Shown here: positions 1,682 to 59,313 of the stretch, piece by piece
Numbering within the stretch: the stretch's first letter is position 1
How the letters are laid out: the number at the start of each line of letters is the position of its first letter
Source: an uncultured euryarchaeote
GTDB taxonomy: Archaea; Thermoplasmatota; Poseidoniia; Poseidoniales; Poseidoniaceae
Length of the DNA: 64,000 bases
Reading direction: 5' to 3'
NCBI GenBank assembly: GCA_964001175.1
Contig: CAXFAS010000007.1
Location: 9,611-73,610 of the forward strand
Position numbers and translations under genes: made by a program
The notes under the pieces: generated by a model
What the model was told of the DNA's origin: nothing
The model's input: the letters and a program-made list of their open reading frames with translations, nothing else
Database searches by the model: none

Positions 1682-1734
1682 TATACTTGAAACTTCAAAG
1701 AAAGTATATGTTCAAGATACTCCGAGATTGACTC

Positions 1735-36476: not shown

Positions 36477-36494
36477 TTTTATTCCACACTGCAA

Positions 36495-38646: not shown

Positions 38647-40865
38647 GAGTCAACTCAAAACGAAATGAGGAGGCTGTTTCTGCTGCTGTTGCTACTGTGC
38701 TTTTATTCGGTGGTGTTGTTTCAATTATTGGTTTAATGCTAGTCTCCATGGTCCCAATTATCGAAGAATTAGAAGGTTCGATAGAAAGAAGTGATATGTC
38801 CTCGCAAATGATGATTTTGGCTCAGCAGACTGAATCTCTAAGCGAAAGTGGAATGCCAGGAGATTCAACAAGTGTTGAATTGATTCCCATCGATGGAAAT
38901 ATCGATTGGGACTTGACTAGAGGTGGAATGTGGTATTCTTCAACCTGGCAAAACGAATCTTCATTCAGAATGAAAGGTGTCATGGATTTTGACAATAGCA
39001 TAGAGATCAAACACCCTGAAACATTTACAACTGCAGTATGTTTTGATGATTTGCGTCTTGGACCTTCAAGGCCATTTATCTATACCGCACCCACTTGGGC
39101 AGACACTGCACAAATTGCAATCTCTACTGGTTTGGCAATACCCCTTGGACCTGTTGAAGTGAAGGTATACCAACAAGAACAATTATCTGAAACCTTAGAT
39201 CTACAAATATTCGACACAGAAGTTGTCGATTTATCTACTGGTGTTTCTAAATTTGAATCTAGCCATGAATTAGTAATTTTCTATTCAAAGGGAACTGGTG
39301 GAGCGACTCTTGTTTCACCTTCTGATTCCAATCCAAAAGATAATACTGGCAGAAATTGGATAATTCCTATGGATAGTGGAGATAGTAGAATTCACATAAT
39401 GAGCAAGGATTCTAATCAAATCAATATTGAAACTTCTAATGATAACAGTAATTATTTTGCTATTTACCAAGACGAGTTTAGGGCTGGTGTTTCATTTACA
39501 AAAGAAATTACAATTAGTCAACCCGATGTTGTTAGAATCTCAACCAGTTCTGATTCTCATTTGATTTTACAAACTGATTTAGATAATAATAGTGGATCAA
39601 CATCATTATTGAGTTTTGATGGAAACTATCTGGGTAATGAGTTTATCTCGCCTTCCCTAGAAGGAGAAATGCTATTCACTAATCCCGGAGAAAATAGTGT
39701 TACAGTGACGTGGAGAGGAGGTGGTACATCGATACCAGCTGCTGGAAGTACTAGTGTATCTTGGCCTCCAGCTAGTGTTGAAGGAGCACCACTTTTGGAT
39801 GCTGATGGTGATATATTTGTAACTTGGAAAGTGACTAATGAAGTAAGTTCGCCAGGAGGAATTCACTTAATTGCAGCCTCTGATACTGGTGCGTCATCAG
39901 GTAAAATTCACAGATTGTTGATAGACAATGATGGTAATTCAAATTCTATTTCGATTTCAAGGGCGGGTATTTCTAGTACATGGAATATTAGTGGCGACTC
40001 AAATATTGATGGAGAAATTAGTAATCAATTACAAAATCAAATCCAAGTTATCAACTCTGGAAATTATGATTTCAATGTAGTTGAAGGTCACCCTGTTAAA
40101 ATCCACTTAGTCAATGGAAACAATGGATTGGTTGAAGCCAAGCATGATGGAGTTGAGAGGTGTAGTGCTGTAAATATGATGGCTAGTGGTTGGATTTCCG
40201 TAGATTTGCCTTGGTTATCTCTTGCTGGCCAAGAAAATTTAGCGATTAAACAATCATGGAAGAGTGGAGATTTTCCTTCGAGTATGAAGATTACACTGAT
40301 TGGCCATAATGGAGCATCTACACACTCCAATCTCGCAACATCTTGGGTTTTCCATCTTTCACGTCTAACCTACTCTTTTGCCTCTTCAATAACTGGTATG
40401 GAAGTTGCCTATTCTGGTGGTGCAATTGTAACTAATCACCCTGAGTTCACTCCAACAATAATACGGGAGCCTGTAGATCGTGCGGGCCCAGGGCCACGGT
40501 TTGCTGCAACAATTCCTTCAATGCACCCTGCAACCGATGGAATAAGTGGTGGAGGTAGATTAACACTTGATATCGAATTATCTTCTAGACAAACATTAGC
40601 ATCTGAGGTTGCTTATGAAGTAAGGCGAGGCTGGGCCGAACCTTATGGTGTTGCAATCGCAAATGAGGCATCAGATGGATTAGATCTAAGTGAAGATTGG
40701 ACAATTTATCCAGGAAGACTCGATTTATTGAATGACTACGTTGGATGGGTGCCGGATCCTAGTATTGGAACTTCTGAAGCTGTATGGCACACAAACGGTG
40801 AGCCGATTCAATTTTCATTACAACTATCATCATTAGATGTCCTTATGCGGGAGGCGATTGGATGA
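38643..40865 (+). CDS. large pilin-like protein (class III-type N-terminus), 740 aa
   Basis: ATGA overlap with the upstream gene. N-terminus MRVNSKRNEEAVSAAVATVLLFGGVVSIIGLMLV, and the remainder is a Ser/Thr/Asn-rich beta-type ectodomain. Confidence 0.7.
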   Translation: MRVNSKRNEEAVSAAVATVLLFGGVVSIIGLMLVSMVPIIEELEGSIERSDMSSQMMILAQQTESLSESGMPGDSTSVELIPIDGNIDWDLTRGGMWYSSTWQNESSFRMKGVMDFDNSIEIKHPETFTTAVCFDDLRLGPSRPFIYTAPTWADTAQIAISTGLAIPLGPVEVKVYQQEQLSETLDLQIFDTEVVDLSTGVSKFESSHELVIFYSKGTGGATLVSPSDSNPKDNTGRNWIIPMDSGDSRIHIMSKDSNQINIETSNDNSNYFAIYQDEFRAGVSFTKEITISQPDVVRISTSSDSHLILQTDLDNNSGSTSLLSFDGNYLGNEFISPSLEGEMLFTNPGENSVTVTWRGGGTSIPAAGSTSVSWPPASVEGAPLLDADGDIFVTWKVTNEVSSPGGIHLIAASDTGASSGKIHRLLIDNDGNSNSISISRAGISSTWNISGDSNIDGEISNQLQNQIQVINSGNYDFNVVEGHPVKIHLVNGNNGLVEAKHDGVERCSAVNMMASGWISVDLPWLSLAGQENLAIKQSWKSGDFPSSMKITLIGHNGASTHSNLATSWVFHLSRLTYSFASSITGMEVAYSGGAIVTNHPEFTPTIIREPVDRAGPGPRFAATIPSMHPATDGISGGGRLTLDIELSSRQTLASEVAYEVRRGWAEPYGVAIANEASDGLDLSEDWTIYPGRLDLLNDYVGWVPDPSIGTSEAVWHTNGEPIQFSLQLSSLDVLMREAIG

Positions 40866-43885: not shown

Positions 43886-46800
43886 AATCAGGATCTGGGA
43901 CCCATTGGTTCGTTTCTACGTCCCAAATCCATCCAGGATGTTGAGAACTTGTTGTCTGTTGTTGAACTTGCTGTTGAACCTGTTGGACCTGTTGGACCTG
44001 TTGGACTTGCTGGACTGGTTGTTGTGGAGTAATCTCTGGAACGGTTTTTTGTTTTGCCCACGCATATGGATCAACATTCTGTTGCTGTTCATTCGTTTCG
44101 AAATATTCCTCTTCTAATTCGTCTTCAAAGGTAAAGAAAAATGCTCCGACTCCAACCAAAACTGCCAATGCAACCACTATGATTATGATGATTAAAAGTA
44201 GATTAGAGCTCTCGTCTTCAGCAACCATCGATAATTTAAATTCTGTATTTTCTTCATTACTATTGGAACTGAATAACTGTCCATCCATCTCAAATACTAC
44301 AGTTCTGGAATCTGCTGAACCTAGTTGGCTTGTAGTTACAAACATTTGCCAAGTACCATCAGAAAGAACACGTGTAGAATTGATTTCTTGACCAGAGCCT
44401 GAATCAAATCTCGCTTTAACTAAACTGTTAGGTAGGCCAACTCCTGAAAAGGATGCAGGCTCAGAAGTCGTAATAACTGAATTTGTATCATCTCGAATTA
44501 CTGTGAACTTAATTGCTTCAATAGTTATGTCTACCGAACGGGAAAGAGTAGATAACTCACTATTGTCAGTAGCTTTGAATTTGACGTTTTCAAGTGACCA
44601 GCCACCTATATTGTCAGAACGAGTAGCTGATGGATTGTAAGTAGCAATACCATCTATTGAAATCGAGAAATATGAATCATAAAAGTTATCCAATTCAGTA
44701 CTAGGATCATCATATACTTCATAAATCAAAATAGCACCTTCTGGGTCATTGAAGAATTCATTCAAATTGAATACTGCGCCTATTCCACATCTGTTCAAGT
44801 TTCTCGATTCTTCATCGCAGTATACTTTGACAGTATTTGCCCACCCTGAAGGATCAAATGATGGAGGTAAATTATCTACTGAATTATCAATTGTTATGAA
44901 TACTGAAACCTCATCCGAGAAATCTTCACCATCAAAAGAGCGCATTACAATTTCGTAAACTGAATTATGAGGTAGAGTGTTAGTCTTCCAAATGTTAGTT
45001 AAATCCCATGATGTATTGAAAATACCATTATCGATTTGATCTTGTCTAATGATAATATTTGTAGGAGAATTACCAGTTGATCTTCCTCCCTGATAAATAT
45101 CAATTTCAACACGAGTTACAATTCCATCATTATCCCAAACATATCCTGATATCGAAGTTGATTCACTTCCTCTAATCACTTCAGTATCATATATACTCTC
45201 TAGGACAATTCCTGGCTCTGCATTGTCATTTTCAATATTCACTTGAATTGATTTTGCATCACAGGTTTCAGCATTGTAATCATTTTTACAGAAATCACTA
45301 TCCGCAGCCCAAATCGTGAATGTATAAGTTCCAGTTTGATATATGGAATAGTCCCAGTCGTAAGACCATGCAGTTAGAGATTGACCGACTTCTGAATTAA
45401 CTCCAAACTTAGAAGTTTGGCCATTTGCCTCATTTCTAATTTCAAACCATATGGTTTGGATATCACTACCTAAAATCCCAAAGTATGCGTCAGAAGCTGT
45501 TCCACTGAATGTAACAATAGAACCTTTGGCTGAACTAGGTGTATGAGTTTGACCATTCGATGGAGTATTGATCACAACATCAGGAGCTTCCAAATTCAAT
45601 TTGAATTTTCTAATTGTGATTGGAGAATACTCTAGTCCATCATATGAACGGACCTTGAATGAAACATCACCTTCTCCTTCCGAATATGACGACATATCCC
45701 AATTAAAAGTCCAAGTACTGAAAGGATAAATTTCCTTTGTGATTACTCCTCCTGAATTTGAAGTATCAGTTGCAGAATACCACTGACTAGATCCGGGTGG
45801 TTGGATTTGAACATCTTCGACATAACCTGATTGTTTCTGCATAGAAATTATATCAGTTGCATAAGGAGGTGCAAGTCCATCCCAAGCAGTTCCACTGAGT
45901 GAAACAATACGGGCAAATGAAGTAAATTCAGGTTGAGTCAAAGTCACACTAGGTGGCATATTCTCGAGACTGATTATATCGTCGATAGGCCCTGTTAGAT
46001 TAAAATCAGATTGAAAGATACCTTTGCCAAACTTGTATGCTTCAACGCTGTAAGACGGAATTTCCCTTCCTGTAGCACAGTCAGGATCATCGTCATCGGT
46101 CAATGTATCTCCATCGTTATCATAGCCATCCGAACATGTATTTTCATCCATGACAGTGGTTATCGCAGGAGGTCCAGGGTCTAGTACAACTGTAACTCCT
46201 TGCTCACCGACTTGATTATTCCAATTACGGTCCAAGTAGAAATTGCTGGGAAGAGTTACTTCAGGTGTATATCCAAACTGGTCTGTAGTCAATGAATAAA
46301 GTGGGAAACCAGTGGAATTTTTGATTACCACTGTTGCACCATCAACATCGCTATTCAATGCCTTTACTTGGAACCTAACCAGTTCACCTTCACGAACTTG
46401 TGTACCCCATGGAGTGTTTTGATTTTTAACATGTATCTTAGAGGTGTCAAAGTTTTGAAGTCCAGCATACGATAATACCGTTGAGTTGTTTACCAATTCC
46501 AAAGACATAGGCATACCTGCAGGAGGCATTTCATCGGTATTTGGGACATTAAGACACTCATTTTGTACAGCAGGGCACTGTGCTCCAAGCCATCTTAACT
46601 GTATTGGGAATATTTCATCTCCGCCTGCATCAGGTATATATTCAGACTGAATAGTAACTCTTGATTCTGTTATATTGTAAACTTGCGTTGCATTTGTGAA
46701 TGTATTTTCGGAAAAATAGCCTATTGAACCGTACTTGTTTCCGTAATTATCATCATGGTGAGAAATATTCACTCCGAAACTTTGAGTTTCCATAGTATTT

Positions 46801-48278
46801 CCTTGAACATTCACGATACCACCTTTTATTCTCAATGCATCACCGACACTGTTCGTGATTGTATTATTGTACAGAGTCGCAGAAGTTCGGAAAATATGTA
46901 TTGCAGGGCATTGGAAATCTCCGCCATACATAGACTGAGAATTACAAGTTCCAGAATTATTGGAGATTATATTTCCTTCCATATACAATCTTGATTTTGT
47001 CGGTTGAACAGAAGGCCAACCCTGATCTCTGTAGTGATATTCTCCGTGAACTACTGGCTCTCTAGCAGTATCTGTGATAGTATTACCAATCGCGACTACC
47101 TCTGATGATCCATAAATCCATATCCCATTATAGCCACCAATAGGGCCGATGATATTGTTATATAGCGAAGCAGTAGATGAACGAATAGCAACTCCTGAAC
47201 TATCTTCTACACCCGATATGGTATTATCTGAGGCTGAGATTTTTGCCCCGTCATATGCAGTAATTCCTGCGCGACTAGCGGTTACTATTGTATTATTATT
47301 AATTTCAAAAGTGTGCCTAATATCCCCAGTCTGTTTCAAACCTTTAGTATCAACAGCTGCACAATTGACGTTGATGGTAGAGCCAGTGAGTTCACCCGAA
47401 GACTGAGTGAAAAATGTTCCAAAACCATTATCCGAAATATCGATATTTGTTAGCGAAGCATAACTGTTTTCAACCCAAATCATGGAAATACCATTACCGT
47501 TGTTACCGCAAGTTGCTTCAGAATTACCAGTAAATGTTGATCCTGATACATAAAAAGGACTTGCACTACCTGAACCTGCACCATAAGCTGCTATGGCAGA
47601 GCGACCACCCAAAGAGTATGCATCAGAACCTAAGGTAAATTCCGAATTAGAAATCGTTGGATTGGCAAGATCTACAAGGAGAATGTTAGATGAATTAACA
47701 TTAGTGAATTTGAGTCCATTAGCAAATGTATTAGGTCCATCAAATACTAATGCACCATATTTCGCATCTAAGCCGTTGATGGTATCGACTCCTATTTCAA
47801 ATCCAAAAGCATTTTCAAACTCTACGAAATTGAGGCCTGTCTTAGATTCATCAATCGTATTTCTAATGACCATTCCAGAACCACATGCAGCGTCAATACT
47901 TATCACGCAGTGGCCTCTAACAGTGTAGTCAGTAGGTAAATCCCAGGAGAATGTAGTCATTGAAGAACTAGAACCATCGGTTGAACCCCCACAAGTTTTG
48001 GACGCTACACAAATTGCACCTTGTACATCGATATATTTCCCAAATGGGATATTAATCGTAGCACCTGCACTAACTACTAAAGTAGCACCTGCAGCTATTG
48101 TTACATTATCAGTTAAAGTGTGGGTTCCTGACCATGTTTCTTGCCCATTGAGAGTACCAGAAGTTGTTTGATTGATACCCGCAGCAGTTGAAGAAGGGAT
48201 AACTAACATTGTAGTTAGAGTTGAGAAAATTAGTAGTGCAACTAAAGATATACTTTTACCTGTTTTATTATCTGACAT
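43869..48278 (-). CDS. giant surface protein (1469 aa): signal peptide, right-handed parallel beta-helix (PbH1) repeats, acidic Cys-flanked D-rich motif, Ig-like modules, TM and Q-rich cytoplasmic tail with terminal Trp motif
   Basis: KSISLVALLIFSTLTTMLVIPSSTAAG signal peptide. PbH1-type NNTIVTASRAGITAY...DNTISG...NNIIG...GNTITD. CSDGYDNDGDTLTDDDDPDC motif. TM segment LLLIIIIIVVALAVLVGVGAFFF. Tail ...QQPVQQVQQVQQVQQVQQQ...HPGWIWDVETNQWVPDPDYVHNQ. Confidence 0.85.
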   Translation of the reverse strand: MSDNKTGKSISLVALLIFSTLTTMLVIPSSTAAGINQTTSGTLNGQETWSGTHTLTDNVTIAAGATLVVSAGATINIPFGKYIDVQGAICVASKTCGGSTDGSSSSMTTFSWDLPTDYTVRGHCVISIDAACGSGMVIRNTIDESKTGLNFVEFENAFGFEIGVDTINGLDAKYGALVFDGPNTFANGLKFTNVNSSNILLVDLANPTISNSEFTLGSDAYSLGGRSAIAAYGAGSGSASPFYVSGSTFTGNSEATCGNNGNGISMIWVENSYASLTNIDISDNGFGTFFTQSSGELTGSTINVNCAAVDTKGLKQTGDIRHTFEINNNTIVTASRAGITAYDGAKISASDNTISGVEDSSGVAIRSSTASLYNNIIGPIGGYNGIWIYGSSEVVAIGNTITDTAREPVVHGEYHYRDQGWPSVQPTKSRLYMEGNIISNNSGTCNSQSMYGGDFQCPAIHIFRTSATLYNNTITNSVGDALRIKGGIVNVQGNTMETQSFGVNISHHDDNYGNKYGSIGYFSENTFTNATQVYNITESRVTIQSEYIPDAGGDEIFPIQLRWLGAQCPAVQNECLNVPNTDEMPPAGMPMSLELVNNSTVLSYAGLQNFDTSKIHVKNQNTPWGTQVREGELVRFQVKALNSDVDGATVVIKNSTGFPLYSLTTDQFGYTPEVTLPSNFYLDRNWNNQVGEQGVTVVLDPGPPAITTVMDENTCSDGYDNDGDTLTDDDDPDCATGREIPSYSVEAYKFGKGIFQSDFNLTGPIDDIISLENMPPSVTLTQPEFTSFARIVSLSGTAWDGLAPPYATDIISMQKQSGYVEDVQIQPPGSSQWYSATDTSNSGGVITKEIYPFSTWTFNWDMSSYSEGEGDVSFKVRSYDGLEYSPITIRKFKLNLEAPDVVINTPSNGQTHTPSSAKGSIVTFSGTASDAYFGILGSDIQTIWFEIRNEANGQTSKFGVNSEVGQSLTAWSYDWDYSIYQTGTYTFTIWAADSDFCKNDYNAETCDAKSIQVNIENDNAEPGIVLESIYDTEVIRGSESTSISGYVWDNDGIVTRVEIDIYQGGRSTGNSPTNIIIRQDQIDNGIFNTSWDLTNIWKTNTLPHNSVYEIVMRSFDGEDFSDEVSVFITIDNSVDNLPPSFDPSGWANTVKVYCDEESRNLNRCGIGAVFNLNEFFNDPEGAILIYEVYDDPSTELDNFYDSYFSISIDGIATYNPSATRSDNIGGWSLENVKFKATDNSELSTLSRSVDITIEAIKFTVIRDDTNSVITTSEPASFSGVGLPNSLVKARFDSGSGQEINSTRVLSDGTWQMFVTTSQLGSADSRTVVFEMDGQLFSSNSNEENTEFKLSMVAEDESSNLLLIIIIIVVALAVLVGVGAFFFTFEDELEEEYFETNEQQQNVDPYAWAKQKTVPEITPQQPVQQVQQVQQVQQVQQQVQQQTTSSQHPGWIWDVETNQWVPDPDYVHNQ
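43961..44023 (-). repeat. in-frame 9-nt tandem repeat (3 perfect + ~4 degenerate units) encoding (QQV)n in the cytoplasmic tail of the 1469-aa protein
   Basis: Plus strand: gttgaactt gctgttgaa CCTGTTGGA CCTGTTGGA CCTGTTGGA cttgctgga ctggttgtt. The perfect core is 43979-44005. Confidence 0.9.
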
Positions 48279-48428: not shown

Positions 48429-49430
48429 TCAGCAATTTGGCATTGTTCTAACTTGCTCTAACCAAGCACTAGCGTCCAAATTCCCATATCCAAGTAAATC
48501 ATCATGTTCAATTATAGAATTTGAAGCACTTATCCGAAGTGCCTGTTTAACTTCGCCGATACAGGAGTTATCCAACGTTGCTGATGGTCTCAATTGTGGC
48601 TGGTCTTGTAGAATAAGTGCTAGAGCACCTGTAACAAATACTGTAGAGTCTGAGGTCCCACTACTAGAATACCACTGTCCGTCAGATCCAGTACTGACAA
48701 TTCTAACCCCTGGTGCAATAATTTCGGGTTTTTGGTTAGGATGAACTCTCTGTTCACCAGATATAGTAACCTGACTTCCTTTAGAACTATTTTCCCAAAC
48801 TTCGCCACCCTGAGATGATGCACCAACAGAAATTACCAGTGGAACATTACTTGGGACAGAAACACGACCATCATCACCATTTCCTCCATCATTTCCTGCA
48901 GCAGCCACAACAAAAATGCCTCGATCAAGAGCTTTTCTTACAGAAGAAACACTAGGTCCTTCTCGGGTCATTGATTCACTTTGGGTTCCACCTAAAGAGA
49001 GGGAAATTATGTCTGCCGAAAAACTGTCCATGCACCATTCAATTGCATCAGAAATCTTTTGCTCATCTGCAGTATTAACACCAGTTCCATCGTCACTAAG
49101 TGCAGCTACTACTCCTAAATCGACATTAGGAGAGACACCGTACTGATGCTCTTGTGACACAAGTATACCCGCCATTAGAGTACCGTGAGCTGTTGCTCCA
49201 TAATCCACAGGACTATTCGAGTTGGAAATCATGTCCTTAAAGACAAGATTTGTATTCTTAAAAGAAGGATGCGAAATATCAATACCAGTATCAACTATAC
49301 AGACTCTAATACCTTCTCCTGTTAAGCCATCAAATACCTCTTCATCAAAACCAGCTTCTTCGAAGGCCCACTCCGATTTTGCCGGAGGTAGTTCCACAAA
49401 CATGTAACCTGATTGCCAAACCCATAGCAT
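48429..49430 (-). CDS. subtilisin-like serine protease (peptidase S8); the frame is open upstream to 49652 and encodes a TM/signal anchor there
   Basis: Asp VCIVDTGID, His HGTLMAGIL, Asn AAAGNDG and Ser GTSDSTVFVTGA in D-H-S order. See the finding on the start codon. Confidence 0.85.
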   Translation of the reverse strand: MLWVWQSGYMFVELPPAKSEWAFEEAGFDEEVFDGLTGEGIRVCIVDTGIDISHPSFKNTNLVFKDMISNSNSPVDYGATAHGTLMAGILVSQEHQYGVSPNVDLGVVAALSDDGTGVNTADEQKISDAIEWCMDSFSADIISLSLGGTQSESMTREGPSVSSVRKALDRGIFVVAAAGNDGGNGDDGRVSVPSNVPLVISVGASSQGGEVWENSSKGSQVTISGEQRVHPNQKPEIIAPGVRIVSTGSDGQWYSSSGTSDSTVFVTGALALILQDQPQLRPSATLDNSCIGEVKQALRISASNSIIEHDDLLGYGNLDASAWLEQVRTMPNC

Positions 49431-49696
49431 TAGAGATGCGAATATTGCAAAAAGAACAAGATTTGTCAGCAGAAATTTCTTCTTTCGAACTCTGTGAATC
49501 GGTTTTGCAATTTGAGGGAACCACCCGGTAACTTCGGACCTCCACTCATCTTGGAAACCAACTACAGATGGGTCAATGGCTGAAAGAATTCTCTCATCGT
49601 CGGGTTCTGGAAGTAATTCTACACTATCTAGACTAGTCAGTACGCCACCACCCTAGCATTCACTGTGAGGTGAAGCATTTAATGGCTTGTCTAAAA

Positions 49697-52600
49697 TCAG
49701 AATCTTGTAGAAGATTTGTTTCTAGCGACCTTTAGACCACCATATGCAACAAGAATCGCCAAAACAAATATGATAACCATCAACCATGCTGAATCCTCTT
49801 CAATTGTTTCTAAGGTGACTGGAACTATGAAGTCAAATGGCTCAATGTCTCCACCATCAGCAACAAACGTTGAATCATCACCTATTTCCACAGTCACTAG
49901 GAATCTAGGTTCCTTGATTGATGTTTCATTAATATCAAAGGTTGCCTCAACAGTTTGTCCCGAACCAACTGATATTGTTTGTGTACCATATGTTTCCAAA
50001 ACATTACCAGTATTATCAGTCATCTGCGCTGTAACATTAACTATTCCTGCAGAACGATATCCTGTATTTTCAACTGGAATGACCAATTGACCACCACCTA
50101 CTTCGTAAATGTAAGATTTCTCATTTATTGATGATTTATCAATACTTAGATCAATTCTTGCAGATTTGATATCGACTTCGACAGTAGTATTTGTAATTCC
50201 ATCTTCACTGGCGACTGTTATCCAAGCCTCTATCTCTCCTGATGTGAAATCAGAAGGTGCAAAGACTGTGAATTGCTGGTTTCTTGAATCTCCTTTAGAA
50301 ATCGTAACAGTAGAACTGCTTGGGGTAATTTGCCAGCCTTCAGGTATTTCATTAGATAATTCAACATTGAAAGTATCGTCTCCGTTACCGGTATTGGTTA
50401 ACATGAATGAGAACGTTGCAGTACTTCCTGGAGATACACCCGTTTCTTCAACTGCATCGGTAATCTCTAGTCCATATGTTTGAGGTATAGCTACATTCAT
50501 GAACATTGTACTTGAAACACCACCTTCATTCTCTAGATTAATAGTGATATCATGTCCTCTGTCAAAGCTCCATGAGGAACTGGTATTAGGCATCAAAATT
50601 CTAGTCTTGATAGTGCTTGAATTTGACACAGAATCATCAATATCCGATTCGCCGATTCCCATAGTTACATCAATTGAACTCTGCCATTCAGTTCCATTAT
50701 AGAACTCAACAGACCAAAGGCTAGAATCTTGACTTATGTCAATAATTCCAGAAACTGTAAATTGATCTGAACTTTCAGTTCCTTGATAAACTGAATCGAG
50801 TTCAAATTCTATTACTTTGTATTCCTCGCCATCCACCATTGCAGTCAATTCTTCCGGATTACCAATGTTGAATGTTGCGTTTGTTACAGAAGATTCATCT
50901 ATTGAAATTGATGTTTTTGAGTTTATTTTTCTTGAATAATCGATCTCTACATCCAAAATACCTTGCTCAACTGTTCGCATAGTAGTAAAGGAATAAGGCA
51001 TTGTAAGATTTCTCTGAAGAGTGTTGAATTGTGATTGCATTTCAACATCTCCAACAGGCATCAGTACACGGATTTCTCCGTCTTGGTCAACAGTGTAATT
51101 CCATTCTGCACCCAGTAATAAGTCGAATGAGATTTCAACCTCAGATTCAATCATCGAATAGCCAGAGTCAGAAGAACCAGTATGATGGTCTAAGAGGCTG
51201 ATATCTTGCCAATTGGTAGATATTTCAACCCAACCACCTGCAACCATTTCCATTTCCAATACTGCGCCTTCATTGATTGTAGCATCGAGATAGGATATTG
51301 CAATTCCTCCACCATTGTCGTCCAAATTACTACTTTCGACTACAACAATCCAATCACCAGGAACAATAACTTCGCTCCATGAAAGAGTTCCGTCAGAGTA
51401 TGTTCCATCAATGCTGATTGGGTCTCTATCATAACTTGAACTAGAGTATAGAGTTATAGAAGATCCATTTAATTGCAAATCCGGATTTGGCAGAGAAGTA
51501 GTTACTATACCACTTACGGCTACATTATTTGCATCAATTTCGATATCCTCAACAACAGTTACATCATTGACAACAAATCCGGAAACATTGTTACTAGAAT
51601 AATAAACCGTTTCATATCCGTCTTTGGATATTGATATATTGTAAACGTCTCTAATTGGAACGAATAAATTCCAATTACCATCAATATCTGTAGTAACTGT
51701 TTGGTTAATTTCAGAATTATTATTCCCGACTATAGTTACATTAACTCCTTCAATCCATTCACCTAGGTCTGAGACATTATCATCATTGAAGTCCCAAAAT
51801 ACATTTCCACCGATAAACACTTCTAGGTTAGCATATTGAATACCAAGGTCAATCGTATCGTTAACCACGCCAATTGTATTGAATGGAGCTTCCGAGGTAT
51901 TCAAGTACCAACTATCTGTTGAATTTGAAGATTCTAGGAATAAACTCCAACTTCCAGGCATTAGAATATCTGAAATATGTCCAGTATCATTAGAACCAGA
52001 CATTGTGATATTTCCATAACCATCTTGGCTCACAGCTATAACTCTAGCATTTACAATAGGTTCTTCAGTCAGAGACTCGAGTAATTGTAATGAAATTTCA
52101 GTAGCATTTACCATTTGTAAGTTAAGTCCTGTTCTCAAACTTGAATCTGCTCCAACAGTAAGTTCTTGACGTAGAATTGTAGTATTATCACCATCAACTA
52201 TCGGTGCAACAATTACAATCCAATCTCCAACAGGAACGTAGGCCGAAAAGTTTCCAAAGTCGTCTGAAGTAATACTAAACCAGTCATTTTCTTCTTCATT
52301 ATATAGTAAGAATTCTTTACCTACAGGTAGGCCAGAATCATCACTCAGCACACCATTGACTAACCTTTCATTACCTAGGAAGAAGTTTACAACTTGTGTT
52401 TCTGAGCTTTCAATCTCTACATAAATCTGTTCTGAGATATAGAAACTATTGAAATCAGTAGCATTTTCATCACTTGCAGAAGTCGAATTGAATGAAACAA
52501 TGTACTTACCCGGATTTAGGTTTAAAGTAATATTTCCAGTAGAATCATAATCATCAAAGCTGACATTGGTGACATCATTAGTTTCGCTAATTGAAGTTAG

Positions 52601-55600
52601 AGAAAATTCAGTAGAAACTAGAATACCAGTATCTACTGATTGATTTCCTGAAACATCTAGGTATACATTGAATTCTACATCATTAGACTCTGGATTTGCC
52701 ACCAATTCAATGAAATGAGTTGTAGCATTTTCTGTAATAGAGTGATCTGTCAAACCTGTAACATTTAATTCAGTCTGTTCAACTGTGAAACTGTATTGTC
52801 CATCCGGCAAAGTGAATCCAAATTGTCCGTTATCTGTAACAGGTCCAAGCCATTCAACACCCTTATCATCTTCAGCTATTATCATAGGCAGATAATTTTC
52901 AAAAGAGAAACCATTCCATGTAGTGTTATTGTCATATAAGAAAAGACCACCGCTGATATATCTTAGTTGAGTTAAGAATAAATCTTCAACCTCATAGGTC
53001 GAAGAATTGTTCAATGAGAAATAATGGCTTGTACCAAAATTACCGGTACTCTGGGCAATCAATTGGAATTCTAGATCCCCTGGTAATGTGATTTCATATT
53101 TTCCTTCTATGTCAGTTATGACTGTAAATTCTAAATCGTTAGATGTAGAAGTTAATAGAACTTCAACATTAGATGCTGGTGATGTTGAAGCATTTGCATC
53201 ACCTGTCTCACAATCTGCTAAATTCGAGGAAGTACATACCTTCATGTATCCGGATACTAAGGTTGCAATGGAATATTCTACTGCGAAATTCAAGTCTTCT
53301 TCCAAGTTAAAAGAATTAAACAATACGTAATCATCTGAATTGGAATCGCTTAATTGATATGAACCAGGAGTTAATTCAGCATTTATTATACCATTTTCAT
53401 CGGTTGTGAAGGAAACAGAAGTTGAAGAATTAGTTGAACTAATTTCAATCGTTCTATTGACTGTAGAGAACAACGGTTCGGATGTACTCGAATTCAAAGG
53501 AGAATTCAGTTGTATTGAAACATCAAACTTTTCAGGAATTATTGAAATCGGTTCGAATGAACCTGCTTCACTGCCTACCGAAAGGGTACTATTAATTTCA
53601 TAGAATCCATCCGAATCAACATCTATTCTAAATTGATATTCACCAGTAGAGACTGGTCCGTAGTAATACCCACCAGTTGAATTGGTTTCGACCTGAATTG
53701 AACTGGAGTCGTCAAGTAATAAGTCAGTAAGTTCAAAGGAAGAATTAGAGATATTGTCACCTGATAGATCAGTGATATTTCCTCGTAGAACTGAACCAGG
53801 AATTGACAATGATAAATCATAACTTGGCACTAATCCAACTGAGATAACATCAGGAAGCATTACTTCTCTACCATTTTCAAACATAGCATAAACTTCGTAA
53901 TCACCAGGGACAAGTCCGGTCTGATAAAATGAACCAGGACTTACCATTTCACCTGAGAAATCACCAATACCCGTGAATAATCCAGTTCCATTGAATGTCC
54001 CTGTTCCTTCAAAAGTACCTATACCTTCAAATGTTGATAATTCATGATTTTGCGATAAAACCGATACACCTGTTGAGGTAAATCTTCCATCTGCATCATA
54101 TTCGCCATCGATCATGTAAATCGGTAAATCACCAGAATCATCCATCAAACAAATTGTTTGATTAACAGGCATGGAAATGTTTTCACTATCATTAGAATCA
54201 ACAGTACAAGCAGTAATCTGGGAAGTATCTGCATCTATCCAAGTTGCTTTAATTGATCCAGAACCGTTCCATGTACCATTAGCAACGAAAGTTCGTCCAT
54301 CGTTGATAGTTCTAGTAAAAGTTCCAGTGAAATCAATTGCTGATGCGATACCATTGCTTACAAATGTACCGTTCTCAGTGAACTTAACTTCACCCTCACC
54401 TTGTAATATTCTAGTTTCATCTGTGGTAAATGAACCGTTAGTAGTTCTAATATTTACATCATCTGAAATCCCAAAAGTGCTCTTCAAAACAATGTCAGTG
54501 TCGACAAGAGCTTCGCCATCGAATAATTCATCTCCACTCCAAGCAATCGAACCTGAGATGCCGGAACTTGAAACTTGAATATCCATAGTTTGAGTAACTA
54601 GTTCAGTTCTGTTTGCTTGTTCTCCTGTAACATTGAGTTGAACTTCACCTAACCAAGTCATATTAGCAACATTTCCTAGTACGGCTGTAATTTCATTGAT
54701 TGTTCTATCTTCATTAACATCAACTAGTACATCGTTCAAGTTTTGAGCAAATGATCCATCTTGAATAGCATTCTGTGCAACGGTTAGATTCATGTTTCCT
54801 GTGAATGCACTAACTCTAATCTTTCCGGCAGGTGCCGTAAACGACCATTGTCCGTTTTCATCAGCATCTGTAAAGCCAATAGGAATCCAATATGTGTCAT
54901 TATCAAGATCTTCAGCACCTTCTCCGGAGAAAGCATCTCTTTCAACAAGTAATCTAACTCCTGAAAGGGGACTATCAGTATCTTCCATTGTTACTTGACC
55001 TGAGACCTCAGCTCCTGAGTAATACTTTAGAATCTTTACATATGTATTTGCTTGTCCGAATGAAAAGTTATTATCTTCATTATACCAATTGGCAATGACG
55101 AAATGATTCATCATTGCACCAGGCATAGGAAGTGCCTGTTGTAGATAGCTACCAGGGGTTCCCGACTGCCCAAAGTGTTGTGATGGTTGAGGGTTGCTCC
55201 ACGCTGTGGAAGTTTCAGCATTTACTCCTAATGATGATGCCCCATAACCGACATAAGCACGTGAGAGCATTGTATCAAAGAATGCTGGATTATGATCTAC
55301 TCTTACATCTTCTACTTGTAGAGGGTCAATGTCCAAACCTGCTTGTTGGTCAAGGAAGTCATCCGTCATCGCTTCATCGACTTGTTCCCTAGTCATTTCT
55401 TGAGGAATTCCGCCTCGGGTTGTTTCGTAGACTTCATTCATAAATGTAGATACATCTTGACCACTGAGAATTGTTGGAGCCCCAAAGATACCCATTGGTT
55501 GACCTTGGTTGTAATTGAAATCTGCTGTATATTTACCAGCTCTTGGGTAAAGTCTGTTATCGATTGCAAAATATCTAATTTCGTGATCTCTATCGATTGT

Positions 55601-58600
55601 TTCTCCTGGCAGACCTTCATAGTCTTGGACAGAATAATATTTCTCCATACCTATCAAATCATCGTAAAGATTTGTGATGCCATCCGAATCTAAACTATCA
55701 GATAATAATTGAACTGCAAGTGCAAGACGGGTGTTCTTTCTGTGTATGTGTGTTGAAACAGAAGAAAACTCCTCTTTTAGATCACTTGTGTACCAATACT
55801 CACCGAATATGTAATGAGTTGTGTCATAAGTTGATTCCTGACCTGAACGGACTTCGCTGTTGAAGGTTAAATTCGCATCATCAAAATTAGACCAGTCTCC
55901 ATCAACACAAGATGTTGAAACAATAGGGTCGCAAATTAATCTTTGACTATTTTGATAAATTCTCCAAAAATCATTAGACGTATCTGCTATTCCATCAATT
56001 CTATGGTGTCCTTCAGCCATGACAATGTCACGATTTGTCTGAATTACCTTGAACGAATAATCATCTATCATATCTTCCATTTTATCGAAGTCATCTTCTT
56101 CTTGCGAGGTCTTGAATAAAGCGAACTGTTCGTCACCTAGATGACTATCAACAATATTTTCAAATCCATTAGTTAATTCATAACCATCCCCATTAGAACT
56201 GGAGTAACTTAAATCGCCTTGAGCAAGTTGCCAGATAAACATTGAAATCAAATCATCTTGACTTCTAGCAAGAAGCATGTTACCAGATGCTGGAATTCCA
56301 GACTGGAAGTTATCAGAAACTGAAGGGTGTTCACCAGTATCTAGTGCTTGGAAACCATAATCCCACCATGATATGAAAGCAGGTCTTTCTGAAAATTTAT
56401 CTTGAGCATCTTGATTAGCAAGCCATTCATAGGCGCCATTCCATCCTTGATCATTAAATCCAGAACCAAAGGAACCAAGATACCAATTACCTGAGTAAGA
56501 ACTACTGTCTAATATGGAAAATCCAGCCAACTCCCATCTTAAAGCATCAGGTATAAGATTGAAAATTGTTTCATCAAGTTCATCTTCAGCCTCAACTGAA
56601 CTAGGTATAGCCGCATCTAGTCCATAAGTGAACTGTTGCCCGCCCAAAAGAACGAAAATCAATAGAATAGCTGAGAATGAGGGTGTTCTCCAAACAGCTT
56701 TCCTAGCACCTGTAATTCTGTCGGCTGGTGTTCTAATACCAAATTTCTTCCAGGTCTTTAGAAGGCCTTCCCAATTTGCTCTTCGCCAAAGTGAGGTAAT
56801 TCCCCAAGCACCAAGAACAGCAACTGCAGGAGTTGCATTGAACATAAATCTAGCAGCAGTCCAAGCCATGTAAGTTGCAGCGAAAATCCAAATTCCAAAT
56901 ACTAAGTGTGTTTGGTTTCTGTTTCTCAAAGCAGACCATAAACTGTAGAATCCCATGGTAAGAGCCAACACTAGTACAATTGGCCCTAATTGAGCAAATA
57001 GTTGACCTCTATCAGGAGCATTTGCTTCAGCAACAGTACCGAAAATCTTAGTCTTGGTGAAATAACCGCTACCGGTGAACAAAACATCCCATGCATTAGA
57101 TAAGTCAAATTGCTTTAGTGTCCATAATAGTACAAAGAAGATTGTCGCAATGACTGTCAGAGTTCCTAGGACTAACAGCCAAGGCTTATCTCTAAATCCA
57201 GTGGTAACATAAGAGATTACCAATGAAAATCCTAGTACAAACAGGAACGGTTGGAGACCTGTTCCGTCAAAGATTAAATCTAATTGTGGATGACCATAGA
57301 ATGGTAATGCCATTAATAGATTAACTCCAAGCATTGTCAAAAACAGTGCATTAATGGACGTAGAATCTCTTCTTCTAAACATATTCAATGCTACTTGAGC
57401 GAAATATGCCAAGAACAGAATACTCGGTCCGACTACGAAACCTTTCCAACCAAGAGATGCGACTCCAAAGGAGACACCTGCAAGAATTGCAAATGACATA
57501 GCAGCTTTTCTTTCTCGAGCTACAACACCAAACGATGCGAAAATATCAGACAATCTAGGAGAAGAATTTCTAGTTAGTCTTTCTGAACCAGAGAACTTCA
57601 CTGCTTTCATCCAATACATGAAACCTAGAGATATGAATAGCATCACAAAAGCATCGTGGTCAGCTAAAGCCCAAGTAGAGTGGCTAACGTGAGCAGGCAT
57701 GAATGAGATTAACCATGCAGCAACAACACTTGCAGACTTTCCGAAGTGATCTTTAGCAATTGTTGCTATTGGGAATATAGTTAGAGCACCATAAACTGCA
57801 GGAAGACCTAGCATTGCGTACCAAACTGCATCATCACCTAACATAGGTTCTAAGAGCATCGAAACTATAGCGATTGACCAAGTGAATAATGGAGGTCTTG
57901 GATTGACTCCACCTAATGGATATGCACGGTCAGCATCTACAATCAAATGTGCTTCGTTGGCAATAATATAGTCGACTACACGCTTCATGTACCAAGGGTC
58001 AGAACCACCAGTCATGTCCCAATTTCCAGTTCCATAAGCATTCATTGAAGGAACTACAAACCATTGCATACGGATTACAAGTCCAAAGAAGAACGCCATT
58101 CCAACCATTATACTGGCCCAATGAGCATTCCAGAATTTTCTAGCCCCGCTAATTTCGTGGTCTTCTCTGTTAGACCATCCACCCCACTTCTCGTGTGTTG
58201 AAATCATATAAATTCCAACACAAATGAAGAAAGTAATACCTAGCCAAATCAAAGCACCCCAGGTGCCATCAAGTTGATCAGCTTGCCACATTCCTCTTTC
58301 ATACCAAGAAGATACTTGATAAAGAGCCCACATTGAACCTGTTAGCATTGCTCTGGTATACCATCTCTCAGCAACCATTCCAGCAACAATAAATGCAATC
58401 ATACCAGTGAAGAATGCTGCCCAGAATCCAAAGTGACCATGGTAACCCTCAACGCTGGTAATTCCTAATTTATCTGCCATGGAGACAGAATCAAAGTGCC
58501 ACAAACTTCCGATGTGTGCTAAAATCCAAACCAATAAAGCGATTTGCAAAGGAAGGGTTGACTTATTCCATGCTGATTGTGAAGATTTGATGTTACTGAA

Positions 58601-59275
58601 CCAACCCTCTTCGGATTCAGCGTTCAGTATGCCTCTTGTCAAAACAGCAACTAATAGGCCAAGCAATACAAATATCATCATGTAACTGAAGAATATGTAA
58701 CCTAAAGCCTGTCTTTGTAAATTTAGGGTTGAAACAAAACCACCATCTGCTCTTTCAAAAATTGTATCCAATTCTGGATTATAGAACAGTGCTGCTATCA
58801 TTCCTAAGTTTATACCAACTGCAGCAAATACCGTTACTGTAGACCATTCAAATCTGCCTCTTGAGTCAAAGAAGTATACTAAAAATGTAACTACAAGGAA
58901 CTGTAAAGCAGTGAATGCACTCAAGTCAGTAAGGTGAATGATTGCTTGGTGCCCAACCAATGCAACACCAAGTGCTGCGAGGGAAATGGTTGCGGAACCG
59001 TAAGGAATCAAATCATTGTTCTTTAGGATACGTGGTACAGTACCCAAAATTCCAGCGATGACGATGACTAGCATCGGCATCAAGTTGTCTTGATTCAAGT
59101 CGAAGTCTATGCCTACGACTTTGATGGCTGCGATAGCAAGCAAGACTGCTAGGGGGGCAATAAGCCATCCCAGCAGTGGTGCCGGCGCGGTTCGCGGACT
59201 ACCTATTTTTTCTTCCATTTTCTTTCCCTCTGTGTTGTTTTCGCGACAGCCTAAAGGCTGAAGCGTCTTCGCCAC
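49697..59275 (-). CDS. aglB: giant oligosaccharyltransferase AglB/STT3 fusion (3192 codons): extra N-terminal multi-TM module + STT3 core + ~2,200 aa repetitive ectodomain + C-terminal TM
   Basis: GSDPWYMKR encoded at ~57989-58006, ALADHDAF, GTVAEANAP, WWDYG encoded at 56354-56368, and SDNFQSG. CarboxypepD_reg-like and NEW3/CARDB-like modules. C-terminus WLMVIIFVLAILVAYGGLKVARNKSSTRF. The track start is GTG 59275, and ATG 59218 preceded by gagggaaagaaa is a plausible alternative. Confidence 0.85.
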   Translation of the reverse strand: MAKTLQPLGCRENNTEGKKMEEKIGSPRTAPAPLLGWLIAPLAVLLAIAAIKVVGIDFDLNQDNLMPMLVIVIAGILGTVPRILKNNDLIPYGSATISLAALGVALVGHQAIIHLTDLSAFTALQFLVVTFLVYFFDSRGRFEWSTVTVFAAVGINLGMIAALFYNPELDTIFERADGGFVSTLNLQRQALGYIFFSYMMIFVLLGLLVAVLTRGILNAESEEGWFSNIKSSQSAWNKSTLPLQIALLVWILAHIGSLWHFDSVSMADKLGITSVEGYHGHFGFWAAFFTGMIAFIVAGMVAERWYTRAMLTGSMWALYQVSSWYERGMWQADQLDGTWGALIWLGITFFICVGIYMISTHEKWGGWSNREDHEISGARKFWNAHWASIMVGMAFFFGLVIRMQWFVVPSMNAYGTGNWDMTGGSDPWYMKRVVDYIIANEAHLIVDADRAYPLGGVNPRPPLFTWSIAIVSMLLEPMLGDDAVWYAMLGLPAVYGALTIFPIATIAKDHFGKSASVVAAWLISFMPAHVSHSTWALADHDAFVMLFISLGFMYWMKAVKFSGSERLTRNSSPRLSDIFASFGVVARERKAAMSFAILAGVSFGVASLGWKGFVVGPSILFLAYFAQVALNMFRRRDSTSINALFLTMLGVNLLMALPFYGHPQLDLIFDGTGLQPFLFVLGFSLVISYVTTGFRDKPWLLVLGTLTVIATIFFVLLWTLKQFDLSNAWDVLFTGSGYFTKTKIFGTVAEANAPDRGQLFAQLGPIVLVLALTMGFYSLWSALRNRNQTHLVFGIWIFAATYMAWTAARFMFNATPAVAVLGAWGITSLWRRANWEGLLKTWKKFGIRTPADRITGARKAVWRTPSFSAILLIFVLLGGQQFTYGLDAAIPSSVEAEDELDETIFNLIPDALRWELAGFSILDSSSYSGNWYLGSFGSGFNDQGWNGAYEWLANQDAQDKFSERPAFISWWDYGFQALDTGEHPSVSDNFQSGIPASGNMLLARSQDDLISMFIWQLAQGDLSYSSSNGDGYELTNGFENIVDSHLGDEQFALFKTSQEEDDFDKMEDMIDDYSFKVIQTNRDIVMAEGHHRIDGIADTSNDFWRIYQNSQRLICDPIVSTSCVDGDWSNFDDANLTFNSEVRSGQESTYDTTHYIFGEYWYTSDLKEEFSSVSTHIHRKNTRLALAVQLLSDSLDSDGITNLYDDLIGMEKYYSVQDYEGLPGETIDRDHEIRYFAIDNRLYPRAGKYTADFNYNQGQPMGIFGAPTILSGQDVSTFMNEVYETTRGGIPQEMTREQVDEAMTDDFLDQQAGLDIDPLQVEDVRVDHNPAFFDTMLSRAYVGYGASSLGVNAETSTAWSNPQPSQHFGQSGTPGSYLQQALPMPGAMMNHFVIANWYNEDNNFSFGQANTYVKILKYYSGAEVSGQVTMEDTDSPLSGVRLLVERDAFSGEGAEDLDNDTYWIPIGFTDADENGQWSFTAPAGKIRVSAFTGNMNLTVAQNAIQDGSFAQNLNDVLVDVNEDRTINEITAVLGNVANMTWLGEVQLNVTGEQANRTELVTQTMDIQVSSSGISGSIAWSGDELFDGEALVDTDIVLKSTFGISDDVNIRTTNGSFTTDETRILQGEGEVKFTENGTFVSNGIASAIDFTGTFTRTINDGRTFVANGTWNGSGSIKATWIDADTSQITACTVDSNDSENISMPVNQTICLMDDSGDLPIYMIDGEYDADGRFTSTGVSVLSQNHELSTFEGIGTFEGTGTFNGTGLFTGIGDFSGEMVSPGSFYQTGLVPGDYEVYAMFENGREVMLPDVISVGLVPSYDLSLSIPGSVLRGNITDLSGDNISNSSFELTDLLLDDSSSIQVETNSTGGYYYGPVSTGEYQFRIDVDSDGFYEINSTLSVGSEAGSFEPISIIPEKFDVSIQLNSPLNSSTSEPLFSTVNRTIEISSTNSSTSVSFTTDENGIINAELTPGSYQLSDSNSDDYVLFNSFNLEEDLNFAVEYSIATLVSGYMKVCTSSNLADCETGDANASTSPASNVEVLLTSTSNDLEFTVITDIEGKYEITLPGDLEFQLIAQSTGNFGTSHYFSLNNSSTYEVEDLFLTQLRYISGGLFLYDNNTTWNGFSFENYLPMIIAEDDKGVEWLGPVTDNGQFGFTLPDGQYSFTVEQTELNVTGLTDHSITENATTHFIELVANPESNDVEFNVYLDVSGNQSVDTGILVSTEFSLTSISETNDVTNVSFDDYDSTGNITLNLNPGKYIVSFNSTSASDENATDFNSFYISEQIYVEIESSETQVVNFFLGNERLVNGVLSDDSGLPVGKEFLLYNEEENDWFSITSDDFGNFSAYVPVGDWIVIVAPIVDGDNTTILRQELTVGADSSLRTGLNLQMVNATEISLQLLESLTEEPIVNARVIAVSQDGYGNITMSGSNDTGHISDILMPGSWSLFLESSNSTDSWYLNTSEAPFNTIGVVNDTIDLGIQYANLEVFIGGNVFWDFNDDNVSDLGEWIEGVNVTIVGNNNSEINQTVTTDIDGNWNLFVPIRDVYNISISKDGYETVYYSSNNVSGFVVNDVTVVEDIEIDANNVAVSGIVTTSLPNPDLQLNGSSITLYSSSSYDRDPISIDGTYSDGTLSWSEVIVPGDWIVVVESSNLDDNGGGIAISYLDATINEGAVLEMEMVAGGWVEISTNWQDISLLDHHTGSSDSGYSMIESEVEISFDLLLGAEWNYTVDQDGEIRVLMPVGDVEMQSQFNTLQRNLTMPYSFTTMRTVEQGILDVEIDYSRKINSKTSISIDESSVTNATFNIGNPEELTAMVDGEEYKVIEFELDSVYQGTESSDQFTVSGIIDISQDSSLWSVEFYNGTEWQSSIDVTMGIGESDIDDSVSNSSTIKTRILMPNTSSSWSFDRGHDITINLENEGGVSSTMFMNVAIPQTYGLEITDAVEETGVSPGSTATFSFMLTNTGNGDDTFNVELSNEIPEGWQITPSSSTVTISKGDSRNQQFTVFAPSDFTSGEIEAWITVASEDGITNTTVEVDIKSARIDLSIDKSSINEKSYIYEVGGGQLVIPVENTGYRSAGIVNVTAQMTDNTGNVLETYGTQTISVGSGQTVEATFDINETSIKEPRFLVTVEIGDDSTFVADGGDIEPFDFIVPVTLETIEEDSAWLMVIIFVLAILVAYGGLKVARNKSSTRF

Positions 59276-59293
59276 TTTAGAACCTCTTTTAAT

Positions 59294-59313
59294 GGTGACG
59301 CTATAGTGTCACC
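59294..59313. promoter_or_regulatory. near-perfect 20-bp palindrome / hairpin between purD and aglB
   Basis: GGTGACGC tata GTGTCACC: an 8-bp stem with one G-T pair and a 4-nt loop. It lies 19-38 nt upstream of GTG 59275, or 76-95 nt upstream of ATG 59218. Confidence 0.3.

Follow-up and report, generated by a model that had tools for sequence, protein, structure and literature searches.

The catalytic subunits of oligosaccharyltransferases (OSTs) that have been characterised are ~600–1,000 amino acids (aa) long and consist of 13 transmembrane (TM) helices and one soluble domain. AglB-L from Archaeoglobus fulgidus, a structurally characterised archaeal OST (AfAglB-L; 3WAJ, 3WAK, 5GMY and 7E9S), is ~870 aa long and begins at TM1, with a 13-TM GT-C domain followed by an external domain that carries the WWDYG motif. 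In the eukaryotic OST (6EZN/6S7O class), STT3 lies amid extra TM helices and luminal β-sandwich domains with C-terminal TM anchors. Archaeal S-layer glycoproteins, such as that of Haloferax volcanii, are acidic, N-glycosylated and extracellular, and end in a C-terminal anchor and a basic tail. Here we present a computational analysis of a gene of 3192 codons that lies on a 64,000-nucleotide (nt) stretch of an uncultured archaeon (contig CAXFAS010000007.1 of assembly GCA_964001175.1, positions 9,611 to 73,610; this whole stretch is hereafter referred to as the window). The gene is best explained as encoding an AglB (STT3-type, GT-C fold) OST of a Poseidoniaceae (marine group IIa) archaeon, in which the catalytic core is preceded by an additional membrane module (N-module) and followed by an ectodomain of ~2,200 aa that ends in a TM anchor. 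Taken as a whole, we consider this reading fairly probable.

Few planktonic archaea of the surface ocean are as abundant as the Poseidoniales (marine group II), which are uncultured. To our knowledge, there are no experimental findings on their envelope or their protein glycosylation.

Catalytic core

The original prediction, made from the window alone, described a single uninterrupted open reading frame (ORF) that encodes an AglB/STT3 enzyme with its hallmark motifs in canonical order; both parts of this description are borne out, and the catalytic motifs are intact. The ORF runs unbroken on the minus strand from a GTG to the stop codon at 49697–49699, and the quoted motifs are all present at the positions given for them (Table 1). 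Hidden Markov model (HMM) searches along the protein placed Pfam STT3 (PF02516) at aa 414–819 (E 6.6e-13; 49.4 bits versus a cutoff of 24.5). The best NCBIfam model was TIGR04154 ('archaeo_STT3', archaeosortase A system-associated), which matched aa 389–1005 (E 5.9e-44) up to position 572 only of its 831 positions and with 150.6 bits, far under its cutoff of 450; the protein is therefore a divergent AglB that lies outside this subfamily. The best sequence match in the PDB was AfAglB, of which residues 31–443 of 3WAJ aligned to aa 409–826 (E 3e-09) and the WWDYG region (residues 550–554 in AfAglB) aligned to aa 963–997.

An AlphaFold model of aa 20–1019, computed from a 46-row diverse alignment that included distant relatives, had a mean predicted local distance difference test (pLDDT) of 82.7 and a predicted template modelling score (pTM) of 0.83. 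This model displays an STT3-like fold with 10 extra helices. Foldseek searches of the PDB with the model returned AfAglB first (7e9s_A; E 7e-14, with an identity of ~16% over the fold alignment), followed by STT3 from human and yeast and by PglB; each of these alignments covered ~650–695 columns. The TM-score normalised to the target was 0.46–0.61 for AglB, STT3 and PglB. Weaker matches were to other GT-C enzymes (Pmt4 and ArnT), and nothing further was significant. An earlier run on aa 20–1219 from 33 sequences at ≥59% identity (pLDDT 58.5, pTM 0.36) was discarded; it gave a weak Foldseek match to AfAglB, and its model residues 990–1190 were still confident (pLDDT 80–92).

To define the wider family, aa 1–1100 were searched with HMMER against 1.84 billion cluster representatives. 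This yielded 653 matches at E ≤ 0.001, the best 150 of which were sorted into two tiers. Tier-1 proteins are ~3,150–3,230 aa long and align from the N-module onwards, down to 40% identity. Tier 2 comprises ~87 clusters at 50% identity, with proteins of 2,000–2,775 aa that are 28–37% identical to the query and have their N-termini at query aa ~380; its named members are labelled 'Thermoplasmata archaeon' or 'Candidatus Thermoplasmatota archaeon'. Across 18–72 tier-1 and tier-2 sequences, down to ~22–25% identity, D426, E750 and WWDYG are invariant, and D539, H540 and D541 are invariant or conserved in ≥90%. Such acidic residues and the WWDYG motif bind metal and sequon in AglB, PglB and STT3, and their near-invariance here suggests that the protein is catalytically competent. 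The profile match, the 13-TM GT-C fold, the acidic residues and WWDYG together place the protein in the STT3/AglB/PglB family (GT66).

The correspondence with AfAglB-L extends to the motif of external loop 1 (EL1; GGNDPWY in AfAglB-L and GGSDPWY here), the DxH/DxD motif and the TIAE motif (TVAE here). The two proteins differ in three places. Ahead of TM1, the protein studied here (hereafter the giant AglB) has ~357 aa that contain 10 TM helices. After WWDYG, it has a folded insertion of ~250 aa (aa ~1010–1210; model pLDDT 80–92) that ends before a conserved IRYFAIDNRLYPRAGKY block. After the catalytic domain come ~1,770 aa comprising a string of β-sandwiches, a TM anchor and a tail. The IRYFAIDNRLYPRAGKY block (aa 1233–1249) lies ~260 aa beyond WWDYG, in a region without a confident model or structural alignment; from its likeness to the D...GK[FY] form, which we take to be that of AfAglB, it is presumably a candidate DK-type motif. 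Conservation, calculated per window of 100 aa, is 0.7–0.8 in the core, 0.6–0.78 over aa 1200–1800 and 0.37–0.53 further on.

N-terminal module and ectodomain

The original prediction had also proposed an additional multi-TM module ahead of the STT3 bundle, and this holds. Homology to known STT3 proteins begins only at aa ~389–409. The alignments with STT3, like the tier-2 relatives, start no earlier than aa ~380, which shows that the N-module is not the canonical bundle. We also considered that the N-module might be a duplicate of the STT3 bundle, and rejected this (hhalign probability of 0.1% against the STT3 TM region). The number of helices differs with the method: hydropathy gives ~9 peaks ahead of STT3 TM1, as originally counted, whereas AlphaFold gives 10 helices (pLDDT 71–93), and an even number with a cytoplasmic N-terminus is required because STT3 TM1 runs from inside to outside. 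Consistent with this topology, the mean K+R count in the loops of 24 orthologs is 9.0 for those predicted to be inside and 1.25 for those predicted to be outside. The invariant polar motifs of the module (RGRHEW, RG...GWF, AERWxTRAM and GGWxNRExHEPSxAR) are at or near the predicted cytoplasmic face, and the outside loops are variable and bear insertions and deletions.

Besides 7 sequences that are obviously fragments, an HMM of the N-module (aa 20–385) matched 136 proteins, each of ≥3,000 aa, and none of the 150 other relatives. No Pfam match to the module was found in the window copy and the 24 orthologs at E up to 5, profile search returned no relative among PDB sequences, and Foldseek returned none in the PDB. 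Near tier-2 AglBs, the HMM found no separate N-module gene within ±10 kb at two loci (L081 and L082), and the called genes at two others (L083 and L084) include no candidate. By this distribution, the N-module appears to be an orphan, lineage-specific addition of the Poseidoniales.

Beyond the membrane core, the ~2,200 aa of β-type ectodomain, terminal TM helix and basic tail that had been predicted are supported by Pfam, by hydropathy and by a motif shared by 137 proteins. From aa ~1421 onwards, CarboxypepD_reg/transthyretin-like matches recur, with marginal overlapping matches to NOMO, SpaA and SdrD_B. A ...G.F...P.G.Y... motif is repeated ~11–12 times with a spacing of ~90–100 aa, and aa ~2920–3120 match Ig-type domains (NPCBM_assoc, CARDB, DUF11 and 'choice-of-anchor T'). 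No sequence relatives of aa 1001–1700 or aa 1701–3192 were found in the PDB. The segment from aa ~1421 to ~3160 is strongly acidic (D+E 275 versus K+R 51) and contains 57 N-X-S/T sequons, compared with 27.4±4.5 expected from its own composition (z = 6.5; none of 500 shuffles reached as high). Of 12 tier-1 ectodomains, 10 show an enrichment above z = 5 and the remaining 2 a weaker one; in all 10 tier-2 ectodomains tested, z is 4.5–14.8. This excess suggests that the stalk is under selection for N-glycosylation, and speaks for the ectodomain being a surface glycoprotein in its own right.

The C-terminal anchor and tail follow the pattern W..LV.YGG.K.AR....[RK]F, which is kept in 137 tier-1 proteins. 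The protein ends in ...EEDSAWLMVIIFVLAILVAYGGLKVARNKSSTRF, with no PGF before the C-terminal helix, and thus lacks a PGF-CTERM signal. Acidity, sequon richness, C-terminal anchor and basic tail are shared with S-layer glycoproteins; these, however, have a signal peptide and no fused enzyme. Six tier-2 proteins of 2,200–2,500 aa (P0145, P0152, P0154, P0158, P0168 and P0169) end differently, with a PGF- or PSF-like tripeptide, a TM helix and an Arg-rich tail. These ends, unlike that of the window protein, resemble the PGF-CTERM archaeosortase signal of the system with which TIGR04154 is associated; if they are such signals, the anchor may be processed and lipid-modified there.

An alternative reading of these parts assigns them no role in a cell-surface coat. 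Instead, all three extra parts (N-module, stalk and C-terminal helix) would be non-catalytic subunits built in cis. Their function would be analogous to that of the accessory membrane and luminal subunits in the eukaryotic OST, or to that of a NOMO-like rod: they would position the enzyme at the translocon or envelope, or capture nascent substrates and hold them. The architecture is suggestive in this respect: 10+13+1 = 24 TM helices are combined with luminal-type β-sandwiches and a C-terminal TM helix, proteins with the conserved cytoplasmic motifs of the N-module also have the conserved C-terminal tail, and total length is held at ~3,150–3,230 aa down to ~40% identity, as a ruler or scaffold constraint might require. 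NOMO, of the BOS complex, is likewise a tandem array of transthyretin-like β-sandwiches ending in a single C-terminal TM helix. However, only two NOMO models gave matches, NOMO_5th (28.9 bits, with no stretch passing alone) and NOMO1-like_9th (27.7 bits), and both are weak and marginal and lie beneath stronger, generic CarboxypepD_reg matches, which reflects a shared fold and gives no sign of orthology or of a BOS-like complex. In the eukaryotic OST, the accessory subunits (ribophorin I/Ost1, OST48/Wbp1, ribophorin II/Swp1, Ost3/6, DAD1 and others) are separate chains, whereas the giant AglB is one; the STT3 chains of the eukaryotic complexes are strong Foldseek matches, whereas the N-module and stalk have no detectable homology to any OST subunit in sequence or, for the N-module, by Foldseek, so that the likeness is one of analogy only. 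Sequon enrichment, moreover, is more naturally read as marking the stalk as a glycoprotein product. We therefore regard this alternative as quite unlikely.

Distribution and genomic setting

The same 3192-aa protein is encoded on an independent ENA contig, as found in a search of 5.8 billion proteins. Of the 120 clusters at 90% identity that the search listed, 119 contain proteins of 3,109–3,227 aa with 48–100% identity and 97–100% coverage; the exception is a truncated protein of 2,829 aa (P0005; 89% coverage). These clusters derive from ENA, NCBI, JGI, Tara and Logan assemblies. A locus scan with one genome per GTDB species gave 587 related loci, of which the best 80 were taken. These are 42–86% identical to the query, and most span query residues 1–3173; the others end at contig ends. 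Nearly all lie in metagenome-assembled genomes (MAGs) titled Poseidoniales, Poseidoniaceae or Poseidonia, or with a generic label ('Methanobacteriota', 'Euryarchaeota', 'uncultured euryarchaeote' or 'Thermoplasmatota'). One full-length ortholog (L045; 45% identity) is on contig CAXRAI010000019.1 of a MAG labelled as the bacterium Salinimicrobium sp.; most likely, an archaeal contig was mis-binned there.

The gene order purD – giant AglB – subtilase – beta-helix gene – STAND/TPR ATPase is kept in ~58–66 of the ~65 loci with enough flanking sequence. Colinear full-length orthologs in many independent assemblies, together with this conserved order, dispose of the suspicion that the gene is an artefact, that is, a chimeric join, a missed stop codon or frameshift, or a canonical STT3 bundle whose N-terminal helices were miscounted. 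GC content is even along the whole gene (0.36–0.41), the ORF is not split, the STT3 match is present, homology to STT3 begins at aa ~389, and Foldseek matched STT3 structures over just ~650–695 of the 1,000 modelled residues, leaving the N-terminal helices outside the canonical bundle. Only one anomaly was noted, the start of the listed ORF at a GTG that lies 19 codons 5′ of a conserved ATG, and we give the artefact explanation next to no credence.

That anomaly concerns the start codon only. Orthologs begin at the ATG of codon 20 (nt 59218, 'MEEKIGSPR'), and 3,173 aa is therefore the likeliest length, the true coding sequence (CDS) being most likely 49697–59218. Codons 1–19 merely look conserved because they lie inside a leader whose DNA is itself conserved. 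This block of ~85 nt directly 5′ of ATG 59218, CATTAAAAGAGG.TCTAAAGTGGCGAAGACGCTTCAGCCTT..GCTGTCGCG.AAACACC..GAGGGAAAAAAA-ATG, is kept across 13 Poseidoniales loci even though the encoded proteins are just 43–88% identical. Within it are a TATA-like TTAAAAG, a CAGCC..GGCTG hairpin whose loop varies and a Shine–Dalgarno-like GAGGGA; the block could be a conserved promoter or leader with a regulatory role. A conserved RNA structure in the leader was considered and rejected: RNAalifold on the 13 loci gave 8 pairs at −5.1 kcal/mol, with no compensatory change or covariation.

The original prediction had presented the protein as a new architecture. The fusion is not singular: it recurs in the best 80 of the 587 loci, and the complete arrangement is standard across no fewer than 80 species-level genomes, most of which carry the label Poseidoniales. 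Nor are the ectodomain and its anchor a novelty of this lineage, as they are common to ~87 further 50%-identity AglB clusters (2,000–2,800 aa) from other Thermoplasmatota (for example, MFA5772382.1 and MCL4356568.1), in which the N-module is missing. These tier-2 proteins resemble the giant AglB in the STT3 core, the post-catalytic conserved blocks, the type of repeat and the enrichment in sequons, and 80 of the 87 have a C-terminal TM helix with a basic tail. They differ from it in lacking the 10-TM N-module, the YGG..AR..[RK]F tail and the subtilase and beta-helix neighbours; their N-termini are short or charged cytoplasmic tails only. The presence of the same ectodomain and anchor without the N-module points to a giant, doubly anchored AglB as the ancestral form, widespread across this part of the Thermoplasmatota. 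What the Poseidoniales alone would have added is the N-module, the conserved motif of the tail and the linkage to the subtilase and beta-helix genes.

Immediately downstream of the giant gene, on the same strand, lies a gene for a membrane-anchored subtilisin-like (S8) protease, whose orthologs have a conserved cytoplasmic N-domain of ~60 aa and a TM anchor. Its position raises the alternative that the giant protein is a precursor, which the subtilase would cleave outside the cell into an AglB of normal size and an anchored, heavily N-glycosylated, S-layer-like protein of ~1,700 aa; enzyme and main substrate would thus be produced on a single chain. The two genes adjoin in ~58–66 of the ~65 loci that are informative, separated by a median of 34 nt, and the TM anchor of the protease would put its S8 domain outside the cell. 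The product expected of such cleavage would be acidic, sequon-enriched and C-terminally anchored, as archaeal surface glycoproteins are, and conservation does drop from 0.7–0.8 to ~0.4–0.5 past aa ~1900. However, no cleavage motif or conservation break is seen at any junction, and the stretch aa 1200–1800 is well conserved and runs on directly from the catalytic domain. The same ectodomain occurs at three tier-2 loci that have no subtilase neighbour, and adjacency by itself does not prove a substrate relationship. The window's own subtilase has a displaced start codon: its frame is open to 49655, and the ATG used by orthologs (49657–49659) is out of frame owing to an extra G at ~49651–49653, where the window has a GGG run and three orthologs have GG. 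The extra G may come from a sequencing error, reflect a genuine frameshift or point to an alternative start. On balance, the precursor explanation seems unlikely to us, and we favour a giant AglB that stays in one piece.

The product of the next gene downstream, 1,469 aa in length, has a signal peptide and a right-handed beta-helix region; its C-terminal TM helix leads into a cytoplasmic tail rich in Q (VQQ repeat). Linkage of the giant AglB, subtilase and beta-helix genes in 62 loci suggests a conserved surface-protein gene cluster. The surrounding genes (GAPDH, PheRS-beta, RNase HII, GluRS, ribosomal protein S15, DnaJ, purD and CDP-archaeol synthase) are archaeal housekeeping genes. Rfam and tRNA scans of the window gave no match.

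Table 1 Features of the giant AglB gene and its neighbours in the window
Feature	Position (nt)	Strand	Residues	Basis or remark
Whole ORF	49697..59275	-		3192 codons from GTG; probable CDS 49697-59218; ortholog starts
5′ leader/promoter block, sequence-conserved	59219..59305	-		13 loci aligned
N-module, 10 predicted TM helices, N-terminus cytoplasmic	58148..59218	-	aa 20-376	AlphaFold pLDDT 71-93; positive-inside count; HMM distribution
STT3/AglB GT-C membrane domain, 13 TM	56612..58147	-	aa ~377-888	D426, D539-H540-D541, T747..E750; invariant columns, AlphaFold, Foldseek
External catalytic/globular region	55016..56611	-	aa ~889-1420	WWDYG, ~250 aa insertion, IRYFAIDNRLYPRAGKY block
Acidic sequon-rich ectodomain	49796..55015	-	aa ~1421-3160	Pfam, repeat motif, sequon count, D+E/K+R
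C-terminal TM anchor and cytoplasmic tail KVARNKSSTRF	49700..49789	-	aa 3163-3181 (anchor); aa 3182-3192 (tail)	Hydropathy, tail motif
Membrane-anchored subtilisin-like (S8) protease, downstream of giant gene	48429..49659	-		~58-66 loci, median gap 34 nt
Beta-helix protein, 1,469 aa, secreted, downstream	43869..48278	-		Syntenic in 62 loci
TM helix HWASIMVG...			aa 385-406	STT3 TM1
GGSDPWY			aa 423-429	EL1 acidic motif, D426
ALADHDAF			aa 536-543	ADHD, D539-H540-D541
GTVAEANAP			aa 746-754	TVAE, T747..E750
WWDYG	56354-56368		aa 970-974	
SDNFQSG			aa 987-993	

Elsewhere in the window, two large minus-strand ORFs, 25231–30657 (1,808 aa) and 30702–36494 (1,930 aa), have no Pfam match at E ≤ 0.001 and no BLASTP match within the ±10 kb flanks of related loci; the 1,930-aa ORF is sequon-rich (32 versus 19.3±3.9 expected). 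Two adjacent plus-strand genes, 37561–38646 and 38643–40865, have N-terminal DUF7289 matches, with a 155-aa ORF next to them. The 740-aa DUF7289 gene and the 155-aa ORF are kept ~8–9 kb downstream of the giant AglB in 58–59 loci. A GT2 glycosyltransferase gene on the minus strand (20850–21884; Glycos_transf_2 and Glyco_trans_2_3 matches, hydrophobic C-terminus) lies ~28 kb from the AglB gene and is possibly a dolichol-phosphate glycosyltransferase of the N-glycosylation pathway.

Proposed working and meaning

Judging by the conservation of motifs and fold, a divalent metal would be held by D426 (EL1), D539/D541 (ADHD) and E750 (TVAE, EL5), and WWDYG would bind the +2 Ser/Thr of the sequon, as in characterised AglB. 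The glycan would then be moved from a dolichol-phosphate carrier to Asn at the outer face of the membrane. From the 13-TM core, the chain would continue as ~1,740 aa of acidic β-sandwiches and return to the membrane through the C-terminal TM helix, ending in the basic cytoplasmic tail. The stalk would very probably be a substrate of its own enzyme, and would form part of the cell-surface coat while tethered at both ends. The cytoplasmic motifs of the N-module suggest a docking or accessory domain, not a second enzyme; its partner is possibly the conserved C-terminal anchor and tail, or the co-encoded membrane subtilase. The original prediction had suggested that the N-module might handle the lipid carrier and that glycan transfer might be coupled to surface-layer assembly, both of which are conjectures. 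A functional AglB that is permanently tethered to its own glycosylated stalk, with a lineage-specific accessory N-module, is thus the account to which we incline, with somewhat better than even confidence.

Several points weigh against it. The score for TIGR04154 leaves the protein outside the best-matching AglB subfamily. The packing of the N-module against the STT3 bundle is suggested by pTM and pLDDT alone, and its docking role on the cytoplasmic face is a hypothesis. The domain count over aa 1220–3192 derives from Pfam matches and the repeat motif. The giant AglB might not be the housekeeping OST but a specialised paralog. A stalk that served as a major structural component would imply one enzyme per coat protein, an unusual 1:1 stoichiometry.

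A bolder arrangement can be imagined, in which the protein is a single-chain OST machine. The N-module, the C-terminal anchor and tail, and the N-domain of the subtilase, each peculiar to this lineage, would assemble on the cytoplasmic side, and the glycosylated stalk of 1,700 aa would loop like a gantry over the active site and be processed by the subtilase to give the principal envelope glycoprotein. We think this improbable. If true, it would couple glycan transfer, self-glycosylation and envelope assembly in one gene product, and archaea would have arrived by convergence at an equivalent of the multi-subunit OST of eukaryotes.

In the literature searched, we found no paper that describes this architecture, nor one on AglB/STT3 in Poseidoniales or marine group II in this sense. 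A metatranscriptome study lists 'oligosaccharyltransferase' among the genes enriched when a genus of marine group IIb (MGIIb) is transcriptionally active (PMC9723583). Public-database names of the giant AglBs and their relatives are automatic ('hypothetical', 'STT3 domain-containing', 'GT39' or 'carboxypeptidase regulatory-like'). The sequences are thus already public and the catalytic identity is ordinary, but the architecture is unlike that of all characterised OST catalytic subunits.

If the giant AglB is the main or sole OST of the Poseidoniales, the N-glycosylation enzyme of a globally important lineage would be unlike every characterised AglB, STT3 or PglB, set apart by having 24 TM helices, a membrane module without known relatives and a glycoprotein stalk covalently joined to it. 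It would offer a natural case of accessory modules accreting onto STT3 independently of the eukaryotic OST. The protein is also a candidate dominant surface antigen or virus receptor, and its shorter relatives in other Thermoplasmatota reveal the giant AglB as a large, overlooked branch of the family.

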